64,000 nt of DNA, taken from contig WGCW01000044.1 in the NCBI GenBank assembly GCA_015493585.1, positions 2,788 through 66,787 on the forward strand. Direction: 5' to 3'. A program made the translations under genes and the position numbers. This DNA is from Acidobacteriota bacterium (GTDB taxonomy: Bacteria > Acidobacteriota > Thermoanaerobaculia > Thermoanaerobaculales > Sulfomarinibacteraceae). How positions within the stretch are numbered: the stretch's first letter is position 1; each line of letters opens with the position of its first letter. Under the pieces are notes generated by a model, which saw only the letters and a list, made by a program, of their open reading frames with translations, made no database searches and was not told the DNA's origin. Below are positions 4,887 through 43,445 of this stretch, piece after piece.

Positions 4887-4963
4887 TGGCGCGCCGGAAG
4901 GGACTCGAACCCCTAACCCCCTGATCCGTAGTCAGGTGCTCTATCCAATTGAGCCACCGGCGC
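4887..4963 (-). tRNA. tRNA-Arg (anticodon ACG)
   Basis: Reverse complement GCGCCGG-TGGCTCAATTGGATAGAGCA-CCTGA-CTACGGA-TCAGG-GGGTT-AGGGGTTCGAGTCCCTT-CCGGCGC-GCCA; 77 nt cloverleaf with encoded CCA. Confidence 0.97.
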
Positions 4964-29989: not shown

Positions 29990-30580
29990 TTACCAGCAAC
30001 CGGCGGTGTAGCCACGCATGTGCGAACCGTTCCAGCCATGCATCCCCCGGAGGGAGCCGCCGCGATCGTTCCAGTTCCAGACGTGACCACCGGACCTCCA
30101 GTCGCGGTTGGCAGCCCGCTCCCATGGGCAGGACCACCCGCCATACCAGCGGGCGTTCCCCATGAGCCACGCCGAGGGGGCGGCGCCCCGGGCACGCTGC
30201 TCGGGCGTCAGGATTTTTCCTACCTGAGCGCTGGCGTCGAACCACGCATCGTCCAGGCGATTTTCCAGCGTGCGGATGTCGGCGCGCAGCGAGCGTGCAC
30301 GGTCCAGATCGGGGTTCGGTGATTTCATGATGGCCTCAAGCTCCACGCGCTTTGCCTCGATTGTGCGCTCCACCGGCAGTGTCTTCTGCTCCAGGTTCGA
30401 GCGGATCCGCTCCAGTTGCTGGAGCTGGCCACTGGTCAGATTGCCCGTGGGTGCCATCATGCTCCCCCGGGCCGCCTGCCGATGGTGTCCGGCTCCCCCC
30501 GCCATGGCAAGGGCTGAGATCCCAACGACGGCTCCGATGACGGCCAGTACTGTCCATAACCTCGTATTGCTGCGGTGCAT
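29990..30580 (-). CDS. Periplasmic ZraP/Spy/CpxP-family protein (heavy-metal sensor/chaperone)
   Basis: Signal peptide; NLTSGQ...ILTPEQR (LTxxQ motifs); His/Met/Gly/Cys-rich termini; AAAGGAGG RBS. Confidence 0.8.
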   Translation of the reverse strand: MHRSNTRLWTVLAVIGAVVGISALAMAGGAGHHRQAARGSMMAPTGNLTSGQLQQLERIRSNLEQKTLPVERTIEAKRVELEAIMKSPNPDLDRARSLRADIRTLENRLDDAWFDASAQVGKILTPEQRARGAAPSAWLMGNARWYGGWSCPWERAANRDWRSGGHVWNWNDRGGSLRGMHGWNGSHMRGYTAGCW

Positions 30581-30613
30581 GTTCTGTGACCTCCTTTCAT
30601 TGGTCACTTGATC

Positions 30614-30677: not shown

Positions 30678-31499
30678 TCACTTCCAACCGCACCGGTCGC
30701 CCCAGCAGGAACCCTCCGGTGGCGGAGAGCTCTTCAATGATTCGGGCGAGGTGCGGCTTATCCAGCGGCCCCGTTCGCCGCACATCTCGATGGCTCGTTG
30801 GACCATGGGGCGCTGTGACGCGTGGACCCGTGGCGCTACCTGCTCGAGGACCTGCCGCTCGTACCCGTTAAAGAGCTCGAGCTTCTTGAGGAACAACCGA
30901 AGCCGGCCTTCGGGGAGGGTTCTCGCGTTCTCCAGCGCCAGGGAGCCGTCGCGCAGCAGACGGCGGATGAGACCGGGGTCGATGCGGCCCTCGGTGCCGG
31001 CCATCTCCACGAGTTCTCCGAGCCGGCGGTCGGCAAAGGTCAGCCGAAGCTCCGCACGGTGACCTGGGCTGGCCGTCAACCCGACAGCAACCTTTTCCTT
31101 GGCGAGCTTGACCGGGTAGAACAGATCTCCCGGGACGGTGTCAGCCGAGGCTCCCCCTAGGACGACGAGAACCATCACAGCAGCGAGGCCCACAACGAGC
31201 CGACGCAGAGGCCGCGAGAGACGGAAGGGGAGGATACGCCCCCCGGGAGAGCCATCGGATGATGGGGATTGGCCGAAGGCTGCGCGCCCCGCCATGACGG
31301 TGCCCGCTTCGACCAGGAGGCGGCGGGTTGTAGAGGGGTCTGGCTCCGCCCTGGGAAGTTGCTGCAAAAAGGTGGCGGTCTTAAGCAGCGGTTCCAGCTC
31401 CTCCCGATTGCCTGGGTGGCGTTCGAGACATTCGGCCACCGTGGTCCCGGTGAGGATCTCGTCCAGGCACCGGTCGAGGATCGTTTCCAGCTCGTTCAT
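30678..31499 (-). CDS. Membrane anti-sigma factor (DUF5667-like periplasmic domain)
   Basis: LDRCLDEI...ECLERHP...ELEPLL N-terminus; one TM; PGDLFYPVKLAKE...A.RRL.E motif; coupled to the ECF gene (ATGA). Confidence 0.75.
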   Translation of the reverse strand: MNELETILDRCLDEILTGTTVAECLERHPGNREELEPLLKTATFLQQLPRAEPDPSTTRRLLVEAGTVMAGRAAFGQSPSSDGSPGGRILPFRLSRPLRRLVVGLAAVMVLVVLGGASADTVPGDLFYPVKLAKEKVAVGLTASPGHRAELRLTFADRRLGELVEMAGTEGRIDPGLIRRLLRDGSLALENARTLPEGRLRLFLKKLELFNGYERQVLEQVAPRVHASQRPMVQRAIEMCGERGRWISRTSPESLKSSPPPEGSCWGDRCGWK

Positions 31500-32041
31500 C
31501 GTTCTGCCCTCCTCAACGTCAGATGGGCTCGCAGGGCACGCAGCGCCCGGACCTGTTGCGCCCGGACCGCCTCTGCCGATTTGCCAAGGATCTCGCCGAT
31601 CTCAGAGCCGCTGTAGCCCTCGATGAAGCGTAAGTGAAGCAGTTCCTGCTGTTCCTCGTTGAGCCCTTCCATGGCACGTTCGAGGTCGATCCTGAGATCC
31701 GCTCCGCTCGCAAAGGAACCGGTCGCGGAACTTCTGGCATGGCCATCCGCATCCAACGGCACCTCGTCGCGGACGGCGCGACGCCGGTGGCGATCCGTCA
31801 GCAGGTTGGCGGCGATCCGGTACAGCCAGGCCGGAAAGAATCCCTTCTGGCTGGGCAGAGCCTTGACAGCCCTCAGGCAGACCTCGCTGGCCAGGTCTTC
31901 GGCCTCATCCATTGGGGCCCGCCGCAACATGTAGCGGTAGACCTGGGGATGAAAAGCCTCACAGATCTCTGCCAACGCCAGTGTATTGCCTCGCTTCGCT
32001 GCTTGCACCGTTTCCTCCACGTGCGCTTTGTCCACGTGCAC
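31496..32041 (-). CDS. ECF-family RNA polymerase sigma factor
   Basis: AEDLASEV, FPAWLYRIAANL..D..R, LRFIEGYSGSEIGEILGKS. Confidence 0.9.
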   Translation of the reverse strand: MHVDKAHVEETVQAAKRGNTLALAEICEAFHPQVYRYMLRRAPMDEAEDLASEVCLRAVKALPSQKGFFPAWLYRIAANLLTDRHRRRAVRDEVPLDADGHARSSATGSFASGADLRIDLERAMEGLNEEQQELLHLRFIEGYSGSEIGEILGKSAEAVRAQQVRALRALRAHLTLRRAER

Positions 32042-32142: not shown

Positions 32143-32508
32143 TCATTCCGGCCTGTCCGGGTCGGCCGACCGGATAGCACCGGCATCCCGGTCGCCGGTG
32201 CGGATACGCACGGCCTCCATGAGATCGAGGACGAAGATCTTACCGTCACCGCGCCGGCCGCTGTGCGCTGCGGTGGCGATGGCCTCAACAATGGCTCCGG
32301 TCTGGCCATCCAGAGCCGCAATTTCCAGGCGCACCTTGCCGGTGAACTCCGTCAGCTCCTCCCGGGCCGTCTGGGTGTCGCGCCCCTTTCCTTGGCCGAA
32401 TCCTCGTACCTGCGAGACCGACATGCCGGGGAAGCGAGGCAGGTGAAGCAAGGCGTGCTCCACCCTGGTCAAAGCGTGGGGTTGAATGTAGGCGATGATG
32501 AGCTTCAT
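32143..32508 (-). CDS. P-II family signal transduction protein (efflux-associated type)
   Basis: MKLIIAYIQP, VRGFGQGKG, KVRLEI, GRRGDGKIFV, RIRTG; no GlnB T-loop Tyr; starts 2 nt after the czcA stop. Confidence 0.88.
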   Translation of the reverse strand: MKLIIAYIQPHALTRVEHALLHLPRFPGMSVSQVRGFGQGKGRDTQTAREELTEFTGKVRLEIAALDGQTGAIVEAIATAAHSGRRGDGKIFVLDLMEAVRIRTGDRDAGAIRSADPDRPE

Positions 32509-32510
32509 GA

Positions 32511-35626
<3,116 letters not shown>

Positions 35627-35627
<1 letters not shown>

Positions 35628-36838
35628 TATTCCTCCTCGCCGAGCTCGTCCTTGAGGAGCTCTCCCTTGAGCGTGAATGCCCCGCGAGCGGCGATCCGGT
35701 CACCCTCGTCCAGTCCTTCAGCGATCTCCAGCTGGCCATCAAAGGTGCGGGAAACGGTGACGGGCACCGGCTGGAAGCGTCCTGGGCTCTTCTCCCGGAA
35801 CACCACAGCGCGCCCCTCCACCTTCTGAACGGCCTCCCGGGGGACGGTCAGCGCCTCCTTGGCAGCCGGTACGGATACCGTGGCCCGTACGAACATCCCT
35901 GGAAGAAGCCGTCCGTTGGGGTTAGTCAGGCGGACGCGGACCCGAGCCGCCCGGGTTTGGGGTTCAACCTCGCCGATGAAGTCGATCTTGCCGTCGAATG
36001 TCTCGGTGGGAATGGCCTCGGCGACGATCCTTACGGTCTGACCCTTTCGGATCCCTGCGAGGTCCTTCTCGTACACATCGAGCCATGCCCAGAGGCGTGT
36101 GAGATCTGAGATGACGACGAGGGTCTGCAGGCGGTCGACGACCTCGCCGCGGGCGACCTCCAGGCGCGTCACGGTTCCCGTCATCGGCGACCGCACGGCC
36201 AGCTCCGGAGAAACAATCCCGTGCAGCGAGGTGCCGTCCCGTAGGCTCTGCCCGAGGTGGCGGATCTCCCGCTCACTCATGTCGAACAGATGCAGGCGGT
36301 TCTCGGCAAAAGCCAGCGCTGCCTCGGCCCGTCGCAGGGCCCCCTCACGTTGGAGGAATTCGCCCTGGGAAATGGCCTTCTTCTCAACGAGCCGGCGCGC
36401 GCGGTCGGCGGACTGCTTGACCACCCGGTACTCGGCCAGGCGGGAGAGGTACTCAGCCTGTGCCTCGCCGAGCTCCGGGCTATCCAGCACGCACACGGCG
36501 TCGCCCCGGCGGACGGAGCTTCCGAAATCCTTGAGGAGCTCGAGCACCCGGCCGGAGATCCGTGAGGAGATGCGGGCCGTGCGGGTCTCGTCGTAGGCAG
36601 CAGATCCGGTCAGCTCGACCTGGCGGAGGGGACGGGTTCTGGCAACAGTGACGACCTCGATGCCGGCTGCCCGCATCTGCCGGGCGTCAAGCTCGACGGC
36701 CCTGGGGCCGGCGTTCTCAACGTGCTGAGGCTTCGAGGTTGGTGGGGGCGTCTTGGAGCAGGCCGTGCCAAGGCCGATGGCCAGGGCGAACAAGCCGATC
36801 CAAAGCGGACGAAGGATCGTGACGGTGGACGTGCTCAT
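35627..36838 (-). CDS. czcB: RND membrane fusion protein CzcB
   Basis: Lipobox GTAC; LDSPELGEAQAEYL, VRSPMTG, DVYEKDL, LLPGMFV. Confidence 0.9.
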
Positions 36839-38130
36839 GATGCGTTCTCCTTGGAAGTCATGGGAGGAAGGCTCGACGGAGGTGCGGCCAGCTTGAGCCG
36901 CCCCGTCAGCAGGTCGATCTCCACCCTGAGCAGGTGAAGCTCGAGCCGCGCCTGGAGATCCTCCAGCTCGGCGTCTTGGGCGTTCCGGCGGGCATCCAGC
37001 AGATCGAGGATCGAGGTTTCGCCTTCGCGGTACGAGAGCTCGGCGAGCCGTGTCGCCTCCCGCGCTGCCGGCAGGATCGTGCCGGTGAACCGGAGAGCGA
37101 TGCGACGGGCCGCTTCGTACCGGGCTGCCGCCGCATCGAGGCGGGAGAGCAGGGCACGCCGGCGTTCTTCAACCCTTGCGAGTGCTCTGCGATGCTCCGC
37201 GGCGGCCGCAGCGACGGCTGGCCGGTTCCGGTTCCATAGCGGCACCTTGAAGGCCACGGAGAGTGAGACGGAGCGGCTGTCATAGTCGTTGGCCCGGGCA
37301 ACCCGCGTGACGAAGCTCGGCAGGGCCATGGAACGCTCGACAGCGGTCTGTGCCGCGGCGGCCCTTGCCCGCATGAGCGCAGCGGTCAACTCGGGGTTGG
37401 CGATGATCACGCTGGAGGCTAGCGCGGAAGCATCGATGCCAGGAGGGGTGTGGCTCAGGGATGACCGTAAGGTGAAATGGGTGGGGAGACGCCCCTTCGA
37501 GAGACGGACGAGGATAGCGGCGAAAGCATCCCGCCCGGCCCGGGCCAGATCTGCCTCGCGCCGGGTTCGGCCGAGCTCGACCTCCATTCGGAGCCTTTCC
37601 AGCTCGCGAGCTTCTCCCAGCTTTACCCGCAGTGCCGTGAACTCAGCGAGCCTCTGCACCATCTCGACCTGGGCCTCCAGCAGCTCCACACGGCGCTGGG
37701 CGGCGGCGAGCTTGAGGAGGATCGCCCGGATCCTGGCGATGGTCCGCGCGCGGGTATTGGTTAGGTCGGCGGCCGCCACCGCGATCCTCGCCCTGGCGGC
37801 CGTGGTTGCCTTGCCGTACCTCCAGGGTGCCGGAAGCTCAAGCTCCAAGCCGGCGCTCCATTCGAAATCCGATGCAGGGCCGAAGCGGTCCTCTCCGTGG
37901 CCTCCGCCAAGATCCAGGGTCGGATCGGGAAGGCGGCGGACAGCGCTCAACCGGGCCTCGGCAGCATTGACAGCGGCAGCAGCCGCCTCGATCGAAGGGA
38001 ACCCTTCGAGGATGGTGGCCTCAACTTCGGACGGACTGAGTGAGGGGACGGGCGTTCCGGCGAGGGTAGCCGGAACCGCTCCCGCAAGGGTCAAGAAAAG
38101 AATGATCGTCAATCGTGAAACAGTCGTCAT
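36835..38130 (-). CDS. czcC: TolC-family outer membrane factor CzcC
   Basis: Signal peptide; PLWNRNR, YREGETSILDLLDARR; coupled to czcB. Confidence 0.88.
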   Translation of the reverse strand: MTTVSRLTIILFLTLAGAVPATLAGTPVPSLSPSEVEATILEGFPSIEAAAAAVNAAEARLSAVRRLPDPTLDLGGGHGEDRFGPASDFEWSAGLELELPAPWRYGKATTAARARIAVAAADLTNTRARTIARIRAILLKLAAAQRRVELLEAQVEMVQRLAEFTALRVKLGEARELERLRMEVELGRTRREADLARAGRDAFAAILVRLSKGRLPTHFTLRSSLSHTPPGIDASALASSVIIANPELTAALMRARAAAAQTAVERSMALPSFVTRVARANDYDSRSVSLSVAFKVPLWNRNRPAVAAAAAEHRRALARVEERRRALLSRLDAAAARYEAARRIALRFTGTILPAAREATRLAELSYREGETSILDLLDARRNAQDAELEDLQARLELHLLRVEIDLLTGRLKLAAPPSSLPPMTSKENAS

Positions 38131-38208
38131 GATCCCTCCGTGGGGGTGTCTCTGTCCGGTGCAACTGGACCGGTGTTGGATTTCGAAAAGGGGTGTGGAG
38201 TGGGATCA
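38130..38208 (-). promoter_or_regulatory. Predicted SD-sequestering mRNA hairpin between the leader ORF and czcC
   Basis: mRNA UGAUCCCACUCC (leader stop and following nt, 38208-38197) is complementary, with a 2-nt bulge, to GGAGGGAUCA (czcC SD and A of AUG, 38139-38130). Confidence 0.6.
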
Positions 38209-38511
38209 GGCGGCGCGGGGAGGCTCGCTGAGCACCGGGAGGGAGAACCCCTCTGGTGCTGGAGGAATGGGCATCTCGACCGTTCGTACGGGAGTGCTGA
38301 CCCAGGCCGTCGTGGCCTCGACGGGAACCCAACTGGCGTGACAGATGCAGTCGCAGTACGTTGCTGCCTCAACCGTAGACGAGGCCGTCAAGCTCGCCTG
38401 GAGGGAGAGCTCTCCGCCAGGGCCCGCATGCGCACACGGAACCGCCACGCCAGTCATTGTGACCAGGAGCAGGAGTGCCGCAGCGGCCCGGATCCAGGGG
38501 TACGTTCTCAT
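38206..38511 (-). CDS. Small secreted Cys-motif leader protein (CutF/CruR/CzcI-like)
   Basis: Signal peptide; CDCICH; Pro-rich tail ending LSEPPRAA*; first gene of the czc operon. Confidence 0.7.
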   Translation of the reverse strand: MRTYPWIRAAAALLLLVTMTGVAVPCAHAGPGGELSLQASLTASSTVEAATYCDCICHASWVPVEATTAWVSTPVRTVEMPIPPAPEGFSLPVLSEPPRAA

Positions 38512-38520
38512 CGTATGAGC

Positions 38521-38549
38521 AAACTAGCAAAGATTGATGGGCGTGTCAA
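38521..38549 (-). promoter_or_regulatory. Sigma70 promoter of the leader-czcCBA operon
   Basis: Minus strand TTGACA-N17-TAGTTT with TGn extension; the -10 ends 9 nt before the ATG, so the mRNA is near-leaderless with no SD. Confidence 0.7.
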
Positions 38550-38756: not shown

Positions 38757-39548
38757 TCAAAACCAGAGCCGGATGCCGCCGACCAATGCGGTGTCCACGG
38801 GATCCCGGCCCTCCTTACGCCCGAGGCCGGCCGTCGCACCATAGCGGCGGAACCAAGTGACGCCGAGGTAGGGTGCCACCTCCCGGCGGATCTCGTAGCG
38901 CAGCCTCAGGCCCAGCCCCAGGGAGTTGAAACCGGTGCCAACCTCCATCTCGCCCACGGTCTGAAAGGCGTACAGGGCCTCCATGCGGAACTGGAGGACG
39001 AGCCGCTGGGTGATCAGCAGGTCGTACGTGGCCTGGAGGTCGGCCGAAACATCGGCATCCTGGCTGATCCGCAGGTTGGCGTCGATCTCGAAGGCGTAGG
39101 GGGCAAGCCCCTGGATGCCGATGACCGCCATGACGCGGTCGGCGCCGGGGCCAGGGCCCCAGCGGCGCTGGTAGCCCAGACCGCCCTGGATGTCCCAGAA
39201 GGGCGAGATCAGGCGGCCGTAGAGCAGGTCCAGCCGTTCGATCTCGCCCCCGCCACCTGCGGTGAGAGCCTGACCCTCGCTCTCGATCCAGAACCTGTCG
39301 AGATCGCCACCAATCCAGCCGAGGAAATCCCACCCCACGGCGCTGGGTCCATCGCCATTGCGGTACTCCAACTGATCGAAGAGGAAGAAACTGTTGACCT
39401 GGCTGTCGTGGATAGGCGCCGGCCATCCCTCCGGGGAGCCACTGGGGTTGGACCCGGTCTGTGCGAAGCCCTTCCCGGACGGAATGAGCAGGCCCATTAC
39501 GAGGAGCAGGAGCAAGCCCGGGCCGCACGTGGTCAGCCGGTGCCTCAT
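38757..39548 (-). CDS. copB: Copper resistance outer membrane protein CopB/PcoB
   Basis: FDQLEYR, WIGGDLDRFW, GIQGLAPYAFE, YDLLITQRLVLQ, LRLRYEIRREVAPYLGV, GIRLWF; ATGA overlap with copA. Confidence 0.92.
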   Translation of the reverse strand: MRHRLTTCGPGLLLLLVMGLLIPSGKGFAQTGSNPSGSPEGWPAPIHDSQVNSFFLFDQLEYRNGDGPSAVGWDFLGWIGGDLDRFWIESEGQALTAGGGGEIERLDLLYGRLISPFWDIQGGLGYQRRWGPGPGADRVMAVIGIQGLAPYAFEIDANLRISQDADVSADLQATYDLLITQRLVLQFRMEALYAFQTVGEMEVGTGFNSLGLGLRLRYEIRREVAPYLGVTWFRRYGATAGLGRKEGRDPVDTALVGGIRLWF

Positions 39549-41383
39549 GACACCCTCACGACGCGGAACATACCCGCGTCCATGTGGTAGAGCAGGTGGC
39601 AGTGGAAGGCCCACCGGCCCGGAGCGTCCACCGAGATCAACACGCTGAGCCGCTCTGCAGGCTTGACGCTAACGGTGTGTTTACGCGGGATGCGGCGGCC
39701 GTGACCGTTCTCAAGCTCCATCCACATGCCGTGGAGGTGGATGGGATGCTCCATCATGGTGTCGTTGACCATGACCAGCCGCAAACGTTCGCCGTTGTTG
39801 AACTCAATCGGGTGATCGGTCTCGGAAAACTTCTTGCCGTCGAAGCCCCAGATGTACCGTTCCATGTTTCCGGTCAGATGCAGCTCGATCTCACGGTTCA
39901 CGGGACGTCCGTCGAAATCGTCGTCGAGGCGCTTGAGGTCCGTATACGCGAAGACGCGGTGACCCACGTCGGCAAGTCCGATCCCCGGCTCGCCGAGGCG
40001 GTTCCTCAGCAGCGTGGGAACCGAGCTGTTCTCGGGGCCGTGATGGTCGGGTCCGTGGCGGCCAACCACCGGGCCGTACCATACGCCCATCCCCGGCATG
40101 GGCCGTTCCTTCTTCATGGCCATGCCGGACATGGCCTTCCCGCCGCCTTCCGGAGCGCCCATGGCCATACCGGGCATCTCCATACCCATATCCACCATGG
40201 TCAGCACGGGCCGCTTTCTCAACGGCGGCACCGCAGCGCTCATGCCGGGACGTGGCGCAAGCGTACCGCGGGCGAAGCCGCTGCGGTCCATGGATTCCGC
40301 GAACACCGTGTAGGCCTTATCCTCCGGCTCGACGATGACGTCGTAGGTTTCGGCGACCGGTAACTGCATCTCGGCCACGGTGACCGGCTCCACATTCTGG
40401 CCGTCGGCGGCCACCACGGTCATGGGCAGGCCGGGGATCCGGAAGTTGAAATAGCTTTGCGTCGCCGCGTTGATGATCCGGAGGCGGACCCGTTCACCGG
40501 GCCGGAACAGCCCGGTCCAGTTATCCCCGGGCGCCCGGCCGTTGACCAGGTAGGTGTAGGTGTACGCCGTAATGTCGGCGATATCCGTCGGACTCATGCG
40601 CATCCTGCCCCACGTCAGGCGATCCTTCACGGTTGCACCACGACCGTTTTTCGAGGCGTCGTGGAAGAAATCCTCCAGGGTACGCTTCTGAAAGTTGTAG
40701 TAGCTGCCCATCTTCTTGAGCTTGGCCAGCACCTTGTAGGGGTTCTCGAAGGTCCAGTCGGAAAGCATGATGACAAGATCGCGGTCGTAGGAGAAGGGCT
40801 CCGACCCCGAAGGCTCCACGACCAGGGGTCCGAAATGGCCGAGCTGCTCCTGGAGCCCGCTGTGGCTGTGGTACCAGTAGGTGCCGTTCTGCCGTACCGG
40901 GTAGTGGTAGGTGAAGGTCTCACCGGGGGGAATGCCCGGATACGCGACGCCGGGCACGCCGTCCATATCGAACGGCAGGATGATCCCGTGCCAGTGGATC
41001 GACGTCGCCTCGTTCAGATCGTTGCGGACCCGGATGGTGACGTCCTCGCCCTCGTACAGGCGGATCAGCGGCCCGGGGACCTGGCCGTTGACGGCGATGG
41101 CCCGGCTGGGCCGGCCGCCCACGGTCACATCCATGGAGCCAACGACCAGGTCGATGGGATCGCCGGGCCTCCGGCGGCTCAGGCTCCCATCCGCGCCGTT
41201 CATTTCCCTGGCATCGGCGGGCAGCAGGCCGTCCAGGGTCAGAGCTAGGCCCGTCGCGCCCGCAAGCCGTAAGAACCGCCGCCGGTTCAGGAGAAAGGTG
41301 TCCGACCGATCGTCATCTCGACCGGTTTCGTCGCGTCCATCCGCCGGCGATCCTACGAGAGAAGTTTTGCATCCACGTGACAC
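39545..41383 (-). CDS. copA: Copper resistance multicopper oxidase CopA/PcoA (Tat-exported)
   Basis: NRRRFL Tat motif; HWHG, WYHSH, HPIHLHG, HCHLLYHM; Met-rich insert; exact start uncertain. Confidence 0.93.
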   Translation of the reverse strand: MSRGCKTSLVGSPADGRDETGRDDDRSDTFLLNRRRFLRLAGATGLALTLDGLLPADAREMNGADGSLSRRRPGDPIDLVVGSMDVTVGGRPSRAIAVNGQVPGPLIRLYEGEDVTIRVRNDLNEATSIHWHGIILPFDMDGVPGVAYPGIPPGETFTYHYPVRQNGTYWYHSHSGLQEQLGHFGPLVVEPSGSEPFSYDRDLVIMLSDWTFENPYKVLAKLKKMGSYYNFQKRTLEDFFHDASKNGRGATVKDRLTWGRMRMSPTDIADITAYTYTYLVNGRAPGDNWTGLFRPGERVRLRIINAATQSYFNFRIPGLPMTVVAADGQNVEPVTVAEMQLPVAETYDVIVEPEDKAYTVFAESMDRSGFARGTLAPRPGMSAAVPPLRKRPVLTMVDMGMEMPGMAMGAPEGGGKAMSGMAMKKERPMPGMGVWYGPVVGRHGPDHHGPENSSVPTLLRNRLGEPGIGLADVGHRVFAYTDLKRLDDDFDGRPVNREIELHLTGNMERYIWGFDGKKFSETDHPIEFNNGERLRLVMVNDTMMEHPIHLHGMWMELENGHGRRIPRKHTVSVKPAERLSVLISVDAPGRWAFHCHLLYHMDAGMFRVVRVS

Positions 41384-41459: not shown

Positions 41460-43445
41460 TTCGAGGACGATGGCGGTGGGCGCATCGCCAAAAAGATGGC
41501 CGGCTACCACCGGTTCCACGCCGTACGGGTGGCGGTGGGTGAGACGCTGAGGGCGGCAGGGTAATCGGGATCCCTGCGTGAGCTGCTCTCAGTGGAAGCG
41601 GGGAGCGTTGTCTTCACCACCATCCACAAGTTCTTCCCCGACGAGAAGGGCGATCTGCCCGGGCCACGCGGAGCGCGGCAGGCAGGCCGCCATCCGACGC
41701 TCTCCGAGCGGCGTCATATCGTGGTCATCGCCGACGAGGCGCACCACAGCCAGTACGACTTCATCGACGGCTTCGCGCGGCACATGCGTGACGCCCTGCC
41801 GAACGCCTCCTTCATCGGCTTCACGGGCACCCCTATCGAGAAGGCCGACGCCAACACGCGGGCGGTGTTCGGCGATTACATCAGCATTTACGACATCCAG
41901 CGCGCGGTCGAGGACGGCGCCACGGTGCCGATCTACTACGAGAGCCGGCTCGCCAAGCTGGCGCTGGACGCAGCGGAGCGGCCCAGGATCGACCCCGACT
42001 TCGAGGAGGTGACCGAGGGCGAGGAGATCGAGCGCAAGGAGAAGCTCAAGACCAAGTGGGCACAGCTCGAGGCCGTGGTGGGCGCGCCGAAGCGGCTCGC
42101 GCTGGTGGCGCGCGACATCGTCGAGCACTTCGAGAGGCGCCTGGAGGTCATGGACGGCAAGGCCATGGTCGTGTGCATGAGCCGGCGCATCTGTGTGGAG
42201 CTCTACGGCGAGATCGTGAAGCTCCGGCCGGAGTGGGCGAGCGAGGCGGACGAAGAGGGCACGATCAAGGTCGTCATGACCGGCTCGGCCTCCGATCCCC
42301 CGGCGTGGCAGCGGCACATCCGCAACAAGCCCCGGCGCGAGGCATTGGCCAACCGCTTCCGGGACCCCGCTGATCCGCTGCGCATGGTGCTCGTGCGCGA
42401 CATGTGGCTCACCGGCTTCGACTGCCCGAGTCTGCACACCATGTACGGGGACAAGCCCATGCGCGGCCACGGACTGATGCAGGCCATCGCGCGGGTGAAC
42501 CGGGTGTTCAGGGATAAGCCCGGCGGCTTGGTAGTGGATTACATCGGCCTGGCCCCAGAGCTGAAGGCGGCGCTGGCGACGTACACCGAGAGCGGCGGAA
42601 CTGGCCGGACCGCCCTCGACCAGGAGAACGGCAAGGACCGCTGCATCCGGGCGGTCCGCGAGCTCTCCCAGGCCTTCGCCCTGGCGGTGCCCCACGAGGA
42701 CGCGCTGCGCATCCGTGACGACGTGGCCTTCTTCCAGGCGGTGCAGTCGGTACTTGCCAAGCGCGCGCCGGCCGAGGCCCGCCCCGAGGAGGAACTCGAT
42801 CAAGCGGTGCGCCAGATCATCTCGCGCGCCGTGGCCCCGGAAGGCGTCGTGGACATTTTCGCTGGCGCCGGTCTCGAGAAGCCGGACATCTCGATCCTGT
42901 CGGAGGAGTTTCTTGCCGAGGTGCGTGGCATGCCGCAGCGGAACCTGGCCGTGGAGCTCTTGCAGAAGCTCCTCAAGGGCGAGATCAAGACGCGCCGCCG
43001 CAAGAACGTGGTCCAGGCCCGCTCCTTCGCCGAGATGCTCGAGCACACGATCCGCAAGTACCAGAACCGTGCGGTCGAGGCGGCGCAGGTGATCGAAGAG
43101 CTGATCCAGCTCGCCCGGGAGATGCGCGAGGCGGACGCGCGCGGCGTCGAGCTCGGCCTGACCGAAGACGAGGTCGCGTTCTACGATGCCTTGGAGACGA
43201 ACGACAGCGCCGTCAAGGTGCTCGGCGACGAAACGCTTCGCGGCATCGCCCGGGAGCTCGTGGAGACCGTGCGCAACAACGTCACCATCGACTGGACCCT
43301 GCGCGAGAACGTGCGCGCACGGCTGCGCGTGCTGGTCAAGCGCACCCTGCGTAAGTACGGATACCCACCCGACAAGCAGGAGAAAGCGACGCAAACGGTG
43401 CTGGAGCAGGCAGAGGTGTTGTCGGCCGAATGGGCGCCGGCGTGA
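41460..43445 (+). pseudogene. hsdR: Type I restriction enzyme R subunit (HsdR) remnant
   Basis: FEDD...[12 protein letters not shown] then in-frame TAA at 41562; resumes [41 protein letters not shown]. Nuclease domain and Walker A absent; no hsdM/hsdS. Confidence 0.85.

Follow-up and report, generated by a model that had tools for sequence, protein, structure and literature searches.

On the minus strand of a 64-kb stretch of acidobacterial DNA (64,000 nucleotides of contig WGCW01000044.1; hereafter, the window), a small open reading frame (ORF) of 101 aa plus a UGA stop codon (P0001, positions 38206-38511), which we shall call the leader ORF, directly precedes the genes of a tripartite metal efflux pump of the resistance-nodulation-division (RND) type. 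To judge from sequence and arrangement, the leader probably serves the pump as a built-in metal switch. The pump genes, on the same strand, encode a CzcC/CusC-like outer-membrane factor (431 aa, 36835-38130; PF02321, E 1.5e-35), a CzcB-like periplasmic adaptor (403 aa, 35627-36838; PF16576, E 2.8e-51; TIGR01730, 169 bits against a cut-off of 94.9) and a heavy-metal RND permease (1038 aa, 32511-35627; PF00873; TIGR00914, 1195 bits against a cut-off of 701). With an outer-membrane efflux protein, an adaptor and a permease of the CusA/CzcA family in one operon, the system is a heavy-metal-efflux RND pump of the CzcCBA/ZneCBA type.

Divalent-cation RND permeases carry the signature D-x5-D-x6-E in transmembrane helix 4, the corresponding sequence in CusA being A-x5-D-x6-E. 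The stretch DFGLVVDGSVVMIEN in the translated permease appears to fit the divalent-cation form and, among its PDB matches, the permease is closer to ZneA (717.8 bits) than to CusA (593.8 bits).

Seven distinct DNA loci, all close kin, could be compared: the window itself, L007, L010, L011, L012, L013 (= L016) and L014 (= L015). In every one of them the leader ORF lies directly upstream of the outer-membrane gene, at a distance of 73-81 nt; in the window the intergenic region is 75 nt long, and GGAGGGAUC-AUG begins the 431-aa protein. Outer-membrane homologues of at least 59% identity are present in five of the 41 genomes searched, all five of which carry the leader. Upstream of a homologue of 42% identity from the sister family (G045, L032:2600-3500), where overlapping ORFs of 135 and 177 aa are found, no leader of the present family could be recognised.

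The leader ORF and its family

The leader ORF is a real gene, conserved and under selection at the level of its protein product. A word-index search returned two relatives; an exhaustive HMMER search of 1.84 billion representatives returned four at E<=0.001, two of them full-length; and a profile search returned 16. The resulting family alignment has 19 rows (18 proteins), with members of 98-105 aa. Every relative that bears an organism label comes from a single acidobacterial family, the genomes belonging to the class Thermoanaerobaculia of the Acidobacteriota. Leader matches occur in six of 36 genomes of that family versus none of 24 from the sister family, and one of the six (G033; E 0.0087, two internal stops) was deemed spurious. 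Within the window's own genome no convincing paralogue of the leader was found, the second match there (E 0.047) likewise containing two internal stops. Neither Pfam nor NCBIfam has a family for the leader (0 Pfam families for P0001 at E<=0.01) or for its relatives; a DUF411 match in one row of the alignment (E 0.0025) was regarded as due to chance.

Differences among six of the loci are distributed over codon positions 1, 2 and 3 as 476, 406 and 723, which is a coding signature. The constraint is uneven along the protein: codons 1-27 show 110 synonymous versus 139 non-synonymous differences, and two linkers diverge freely, with 65 versus 249 in the one that follows this region and 48 versus 218 in the other. 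Constraint at the protein level falls on the hydrophobic N-terminus, on a cysteine motif and on the last 16 residues.

The translated product reads MRTYPWIRAAAALLLLVTMTGVAVPCAHAG...YCDCICHASW...PEGFSLPVLSEPPRAA*. The preliminary description of this DNA had reported a 101-aa ORF with a CDCICH motif and a proline-rich tail, and the translation bears this out, placing CDCICH at residues 53-58 and SEPPRAA* at the end. The hydrophobic segment, a signal peptide or signal anchor, spans codons 5-24 (38440-38499), where protein-level conservation coincides with a helix in the AlphaFold2 model. By inspection, the leader has positive charges at R2 and R8, hydrophobic residues from 9 to 24, and AHA before G30; across the members one likewise sees a positively charged n-region, a hydrophobic stretch of 16 residues and, in most, small residues at -3 and -1.

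Invariant columns of the alignment are L15, G21, P25, C26, C53, C55, C57, H58, P97, P98 and R99. Four of these make up the candidate metal-binding motif CxCxCH (codons 53-58, 38338-38355), and the last three belong to EPPR (codons 96-99, 38215-38226), a candidate ribosome pause site in which PPR is invariant. The latter stands in a conserved tail, PEGxxLPxxSEPPRAA, which is followed by the stop codon. All 19 rows contain (G/S/D)(E/D/K)PPR with exactly two residues between it and the stop, so that the proline pair always lies five residues from the end. The distance between the two motifs is equally strict: 39 residues intervene between the last cysteine and the first proline (43 from the first cysteine) in 19 of 19 rows, even in a member that is 27% identical and whose spacer sequence is entirely different.

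The codons for the two prolines differ synonymously between loci (CCT CCC, CCT CCG, CCG CCC and CCG CCT), which argues that the peptide is selected and not merely a word in the RNA. An identical GAGCCUCCCCGC, itself containing CCUCC, is common to four of the seven loci. A motif reminiscent of the cysteine region occurs also in P0009, a 165-aa product whose three tandem repeats with DCLCHASWP resemble the DCHCVCHASWIP motif of the leader family (E 2.9e-5).

RNA elements on either side of the leader ORF

Upstream of the leader ORF, positions 38521-38549 (minus strand) hold a promoter-like block: TTGACA (38549-38544), which is a perfect -35 element, a 17-nt spacer with an extended -10 TG, and TAGTTT (38526-38521). 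This had been called a near-consensus sigma-70 promoter ending 9 nt before the ATG. The arrangement TTGACA-N17-TAGTTT at that distance is indeed there, and "near-consensus" overstates the case, the -10 element agreeing with TATAAT at only three of six positions; for the same reason a consensus promoter scan made no calls between 37900 and 39000. The looser pattern TTGACA-N16-18-TANNNT has a single match on both strands of the window, against 0.13 expected, and at least one match arose in 13 of 100 shuffles.

Six of the seven loci conserve the block as cTTGgAAT...TTTGCTAGTTTGCTCA followed by 3 nt and the ATG, and farther upstream the sequences cannot be aligned. A 14-mer, TGNTAGTTTGCTCA, which includes the extended -10 TG, is found exactly in the window and in four distinct relatives. 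No purine-rich Shine-Dalgarno (SD) sequence precedes the ATG of the leader. With the block so close to the start codon, a nearly leaderless mRNA is predicted; if the block is a promoter, the leader transcript would carry some 0-5 nt before its AUG.

At the other end of the leader ORF, the stop codon and the C/U-rich, anti-SD-like stretch after it (UGAUCCCACUCC, 38197-38208) form the 5' arm of a predicted helix, the 3' arm of which (GGAGGGAUCA, 38130-38139) comprises the SD of the outer-membrane gene and the first base of its AUG. The complementarity of these two stretches had been claimed beforehand, and it holds: UGAUCCC pairs with GGGAUCA through seven Watson-Crick pairs, and a 2-nt bulge separates these from UCC paired with GGA. 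Between the arms, in the intergenic loop, a GC-rich hairpin (CCGGU, an 8-nt loop and ACCGG; 38156-38173) appears in both the minimum free energy (MFE) and the centroid folds. Read on the plus strand, the same positions show a hairpin and a T-rich run that were flagged as terminator-like, and no credible plus-strand gene ends there.

RNAalifold recovers both the stop/SD helix and the inner hairpin from the aligned loci. Of the helix cells, 92.9% are paired, versus 41.8-55.7% in controls whose 3' partners are displaced by one to three columns. The window's 5' arm is UGAUCCC-AC-UCC, and that of L010, L011, L012 and L014 begins UGAUUCCUC; at one outer position of the helix one passes from C-G in the window to U.G in four loci and U-A in L010. 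The helix is part of the MFE fold in five of the seven loci; in L013 the SD pairs with another CU-rich stretch, and L007 is without the helix. The arm that pairs with the SD is more highly conserved than any other part of the intergenic sequence. A hairpin occupies the equivalent place in the other loci, with different sequences and with a change on both sides of one pair in two of seven rows. The expectation that homologues would conserve the cysteine motif, the proline tail and a covarying helix was borne out for the two peptide elements (19 of 19 rows); the pairing is seen in six of seven loci, with slight covariation, a single outer pair having changed on both sides.

How far a translating ribosome would expose the SD was modelled by folding only the RNA downstream of it. 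When Pro97 occupies the P site and Pro98 the A site, the stop codon would begin at about +15, immediately beyond the edge of the ribosome; one codon later, Pro98 now being in the P site, the ribosome would cover three bases of the arm, and on termination the whole of it. Through these three states the modelled mean unpaired probability of the window's GGAGG runs 0.05, 0.33 and 0.42, the value without a ribosome being 0.15, and in six of the seven loci the modelled SD becomes more open between the state with the helix intact (Pro97 in the P site) and the terminating ribosome. A version of the model that included 120 nt of the upstream ORF was set aside: the window's SD stayed paired in every state, because it has many alternative C-rich partners.

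The earlier proposal that a ribosome stalled at EPP would free the czcC SD needs adjustment on this account. A ribosome with Pro97 in its P site does abut the helix; the modelled opening is modest and comes mainly at the next codon and at termination. On this modelling, translation of the leader should expose the SD transiently, and a pause at PPR should prolong the presence of the ribosome at the helix, the effect being partial.

Genomic surroundings of the cassette

Between the leader ORF and the next gene upstream, a gap of 245 nt holds the promoter-like block. Beyond it, a copA-type multicopper oxidase gene (TIGR01480, 797 bits) and copB occupy 38757-41383 on the minus strand, the oxidase having a twin-arginine-like N-terminus, RRRFLRL; no small ORF of the CutF or CopL kind was seen upstream of the oxidase gene. 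Farther on, an ORF on the plus strand (41592-43445) corresponds to no more than the C-terminal two-thirds of a type I restriction R subunit, and its SWI2/SNF2 match starts at profile position 92. Lying beside the metal-resistance block, it resembles a truncated hsdR remnant and may mark an insertion boundary.

Downstream of the RND gene comes a P-II-like gene (32143-32541, minus; PF00543), and a P-II-like gene also follows the pump in a relative of the same genus (L020:6314-6679). Next on the minus strand is a trio composed of an extracytoplasmic function (ECF) sigma factor gene (31496-32041; TIGR02937, 87 bits against a cut-off of 42.9), a DUF5667/anti-sigma-like gene (30678-31499; a weak anti-sigma match, E 2.9e-4, below the cut-off) and a Metal_resist/LTXXQ gene of CnrX/ZraP-like character (29990-30607; PF13801, E 3.5e-14, with a weak ZraP match). 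The trio adjoins the pump on its downstream side in an arrangement that resembles CnrYXH.

The neighbourhoods of the relatives are otherwise different: in one, a divergent RecQ gene lies upstream, and in the same-genus relative a P-type ATPase gene lies downstream. In the four relatives whose neighbourhoods were scanned, neither copAB nor the ECF trio was found, and no regulator adjoins the cassette. Since the flanks are unrelated among loci, the conserved unit is the leader with the three pump genes, sometimes joined by the P-II-like gene; leader, outer-membrane factor, adaptor and RND permease make up a self-contained cassette of four genes. Rfam gave no match at E<=1 between 37900 and 38900, and hence no NiCo/czcD or other known riboswitch or leader; a tRNA gene (4890-4963, minus) is the sole Rfam match at gathering score in the 64 kb.

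Relation to CutF, CruR and other regulatory nascent peptides

The closest described system is CutF of Rhodobacter capsulatus, encoded in cutFOG, for which a Sec signal, a CxxxC motif and a proline-rich end are reported, copper prolonging stalling and so melting a stem-loop over the cutO SD (Ozturk et al., 2023; PMC9973294; a further CutF source is the preprint 10.1101/2025.02.05.636593). As described there, the CutF motif by itself gave no stalling in a reporter (PMC9973294). The same report surveys CutF-like proteins, gathered by iterative jackhmmer from CutF seeds, counting 5,334 of fewer than 150 aa with a signal peptide and a proline pair within the last 15 residues, and gives outer-membrane efflux genes (CusC/CzcC/SilC) as the commonest downstream neighbours of the corresponding ORFs (PMC9973294). 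CutF-like ORFs placed before RND outer-membrane genes have thus been published, and the general idea of the preliminary description was already in print as a bioinformatic observation.

The leader family conforms to these CutF-like rules in its length (98-105 aa), its proline pair five residues from the end (19 of 19 rows) and its intergenic distance (73-81 nt in seven of seven loci). Like CutF, it has a hydrophobic N-terminus, a cysteine motif (CxxxC is contained in CxCxC), a C-terminal proline motif near the stop, a fixed motif spacing of roughly 40-45 residues, little intergenic sequence and, over the SD of the downstream gene, a predicted RNA helix that would mask it. It differs in that CutF ends in PPP and the leader family in EPPR, and in that CutF controls a multicopper oxidase whereas the gene that follows here belongs to a ZneA/CzcA-like RND pump; CutF, moreover, falls within DUF2946 and has a spacing of 45, whereas the leader family has 39 (43 from the first cysteine), a predicted nearly leaderless mRNA and an acidobacterial host.

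CruR of Bordetella pertussis, a DUF2946 protein, is described as acting independently of its signal peptide and as sensing cytoplasmic copper (Roy et al., 2022; PMC9426467), and arrest at its RAPP motif was later reported in vitro (PMC12992588). CutF and CruR had been grouped together as controlling the downstream gene through mRNA structure, which fits CutF; CruR is described as acting through Rho and unstructured RNA (PMC9426467). With CruR the leader shares its position upstream at the head of a metal-homeostasis operon, a cysteine motif, a C-terminal proline pair at a conserved distance, a poorly structured product and a C-rich region around the 3' end (PMC9426467). Unlike the leader family, CruR, by the same account, has CXXC, RAPP, 45 intervening residues and an intergenic region of 162 nt; and copper relieves its arrest, leading to Rho termination, the target being an uptake receptor and not an efflux pump (PMC9426467).

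The likening to DUF2946 in the preliminary description fails at the level of family: by Pfam and by profile-profile comparison, the leader family is not a detectable member. None of three rows, and then none of the 19, matched PF11162, DUF6660 or DUF6769 at E<=10; PF11162, run against all six frames of the window's own genome, had a best E of 0.22, at other places; and a DUF2946 profile search (113 matches) did not retrieve the leader family. When the 19-row alignment was compared by hhalign with the 113 DUF2946 proteins, the result was a probability of 42% over 27 columns, confined to the hydrophobic N-terminus, and with four DUF2946 sequences the probability was 35%. The motifs diverge as well: where DUF2946/CruR-type proteins have CXXC the leader family has CxCxCH, with no CXXC there; the arginine follows the prolines and does not precede them as in RAPP or RGPP; and the spacing is 39 (or 43) and not within one or two of 45, the principle of a fixed ruler being shared. 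The nearest named clusters in the ESM Atlas are all labelled "DUF2946 domain-containing protein" (0.94-0.95, with 103-129 of 256 features shared), which is a lead only.

Canonical DUF2946 genes are rare in the phylum, being found in four of 201 genomes (L023-L026; G159, G227, G110 and G124), none of them in the window's own family. Their products share the three-part layout of the leader family and end in GRAPPLV*, GRAPPTIL*, ARAPPTDRS* and SRGPPAGHSNPLFV*, that is, in R(A/G)PP with two to nine further residues, and have HCxxC or ECxxC in mid-protein. Unlike the leader family, they are 120-140 aa long, with HxH after the N-terminal segment, CxxC, and R(A/G)PP.

Two further comparisons can be drawn. 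Arrest peptides of the RAPP/SecM type (ApdA, ApdP and SecM) are likewise Sec-targeted and pause a few codons before the stop, and the stalled ribosome is reported to open a downstream ribosome-binding site (PMC12992588, PMC10951233). As presented in those sources they monitor the secretion machinery and use RAPP or GIRAGP, whereas EPPR is a candidate motif only. CzcI of Cupriavidus metallidurans resembles the leader in being a small gene directly upstream of czcC for which a regulatory role has been proposed; unlike the leader, it lacks a C-terminal proline motif, by description and not by sequence (PMC9973294).

A proposed mechanism and its alternatives

The cysteine motif, the PPR, the fixed distance between them, the upstream position, the synonymous variation of the proline codons and the pairing in six of seven loci support a leader ORF like those of CutF and CruR. 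An interpretation on those lines, with its pause, metal gating and opening of the helix, is plausible. The hydrophobic N-terminus would direct the nascent leader to the Sec translocon and, with the ribosome at Pro-Pro-Arg, the Cys3-His motif would stand off by roughly the length of the exit tunnel. A thiophilic metal (Zn, Cd, Co or Cu), once bound, would alter how long the ribosome lingers at the pause and the stop codon; a ribosome so held would occupy or unwind the stop-proximal arm and free the SD, and might also shield the C-rich stretch from Rho; and synthesis of the pump would rise with metal. A span of 39-43 residues would reach from the peptidyl-transferase centre only to about the tunnel exit or the entrance of the translocon, and is shorter than that of CutF. 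Metal gating and periplasmic sensing by the leader are pure inference. For the core of the proposal, namely that the leader ORF encodes a cis-acting, metal-responsive leader peptide whose pause or termination beside the SD-masking arm sets translation of the pump, we hold the chances to be evenly balanced.

Several observations weigh against it, and most concern the RNA. The predicted stop/SD helix is conserved in most loci, and taken alone it is modest rather than strong statistical evidence. That it belongs to the MFE fold of the window agrees with the earlier suggestion, but the z-scores for the window (+0.93, +0.03 and -0.62) do not add to it, and over the loci they range from -2.09 to +0.93, mostly near zero; thermodynamic significance of the fold was therefore rejected as evidence. 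The covariation term is 0.21 kcal/mol, with a single outer pair changed on both sides, and the observed covariation score was reached in 12 of 500 column shuffles, a measure that the relatedness of the sequences inflates. Since C abounds in the intergenic region and G in the SD, pairing between them can arise by chance: an equally good match of post-stop sequence and SD occurred in 7 to 158 of 1000 shuffles depending on the locus (0.7-16%), and for the window in 62 of 1000 dinucleotide shuffles of the intergenic region. In three of the seven loci, 21 to 118 other stretches of ORF or intergenic sequence pair with the SD as well or better, and in the window itself six others pair equally well.

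The geometry is also less than ideal. A ribosome with Pro97 in its P site would merely abut the helix, and the modelled opening of the SD is partial, the unpaired probability with a terminating ribosome ranging over the loci from 0.07 to 0.53 and being unchanged in L007. As to the pause itself, a table derived from E. coli (Qi et al., 2018) rates SEPPR weak, GEPPR medium, DKPPR weak and GDPPR strong. The usual context in the leader family is GEPPR, and that of the window is SEPPR; such ratings fit a conditional pause better than a constitutive arrest.

The N-terminus raises a different objection, in that the segment and the invariant Pro-Cys after it (Pro25-Cys26) are conserved at the protein level to a degree unusual for a disposable signal peptide, and a stable, membrane-anchored protein would fit them too. 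The leader ORF might then encode an anchored or periplasmic metal-binding accessory, a chaperone or modulator of the CusF or CzcI kind, with plain translational coupling to the pump and with PPR serving as a structural or interaction motif. Most members carry cysteines beyond those of the motif (4-8 per protein), the predicted strength of the proline context is only weak to medium, and there is precedent for small periplasmic proteins encoded upstream of czcC, CzcI among them (PMC9973294). AlphaFold2, given the family alignment, yields a single helix (residues 5-20) and no secondary structure beyond it (mean predicted local distance difference test, pLDDT, 54; predicted template modelling score, pTM, 0.21). 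This lack of a fold, linkers that are free in sequence and strictly fixed in length, and a PPR that stands two codons before the stop throughout the 19 rows are features that a folded binding protein does not readily account for, and they typify nascent-chain sensors. We consider the accessory-protein explanation unlikely.

The composition of the intergenic region suggests another possibility, in which the leader is the same and its output is transcriptional, the ribosome governing the access of Rho to a C-rich, G-poor stretch, which extends from the 3' end of the leader ORF through the first half of the intergenic sequence, and thereby read-through into the pump genes, as in CruR. C exceeds G in seven of seven loci, the first 45 intergenic nucleotides containing 36-49% C and 11-24% G (44% and 11% in the window) and the last 90 nt of the leader ORF 36-47% C, and CruR is reported to operate through a "C>G bubble" (PMC9426467). 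CruR, however, is described as needing an unstructured region, with an intergenic distance of 162 nt (PMC9973294), whereas the intergenic region of the leader family is short and predicted to be structured, and the arm that pairs with the SD is just the part that evolution has best preserved. Rho-dependent output is improbable.

Metal efflux pumps are normally described as being under the control of two-component systems, MerR/ArsR regulators or ECF sigma factors. The preliminary description had noted the lack of CzcRS/CusRS and MerR/ArsR regulators in the module, and no two-component, MerR or ArsR gene was found among the module ORFs that were scanned, but it had passed over the ECF sigma factor, anti-sigma-like protein and CnrX/ZraP-like protein encoded directly downstream, whose presence in the window counts against the metal-responsive leader. 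That in this genome the pump is governed mainly at the level of transcription by these three, with little contribution from the leader, is quite improbable: the sigma gene does lie immediately downstream on the same strand, followed by the DUF5667 and Metal_resist genes, but the trio is away from the cassette in the four relatives examined, the same-genus genome included, the conserved block before the leader looks like a sigma-70 promoter with an extended -10 and not like an ECF promoter, and no convincing ECF-type promoter motif shared by the leader and the sigma gene could be discerned by eye. Control by the ECF sigma factor would in any event be compatible with the leader mechanism, the two not being mutually exclusive.

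Significance

What is new here is a distinct sequence family, with its own set of motifs and its own target; the concept has been published. A CxCxCH/EPPR cluster, or acidobacterial members, may already figure in the 29 CutF-like clusters that have been reported. Literature searches on CutF, CruR and DUF2946 yielded no experimental test on an RND pump of this kind.

A more far-reaching version of the proposal, doubtful though worth stating, is that the leader family is unrelated to DUF2946 and has converged on the same layout: a Cys3-His nascent-chain sensor, exported co-translationally and encoded on a nearly leaderless mRNA, that gates a divalent-cation RND pump by means of an EPPR pause two codons before a stop codon lying within the SD-masking helix. 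Were this true, it would be the first tripartite metal pump to be controlled without a protein regulator, and this design of sensor would have arisen more than once.

From CutF and CruR it is known that metal can be sensed by a nascent peptide, in those cases on behalf of a copper oxidase and of a copper uptake receptor only. The leader family offers a compact and clean test case, in that the distance from cysteine to proline is fixed, the PPR stands two codons from the stop, the stop lies in the arm that masks the SD, and a promoter-like block abuts the start codon. If the switch is confirmed, current Pfam models would be missing a part of the class of nascent-peptide sensors, in a phylum that has few canonical members (four of 201 genomes), and the mechanism would extend to divalent-metal RND pumps and to motifs beyond RAPP and PPP.

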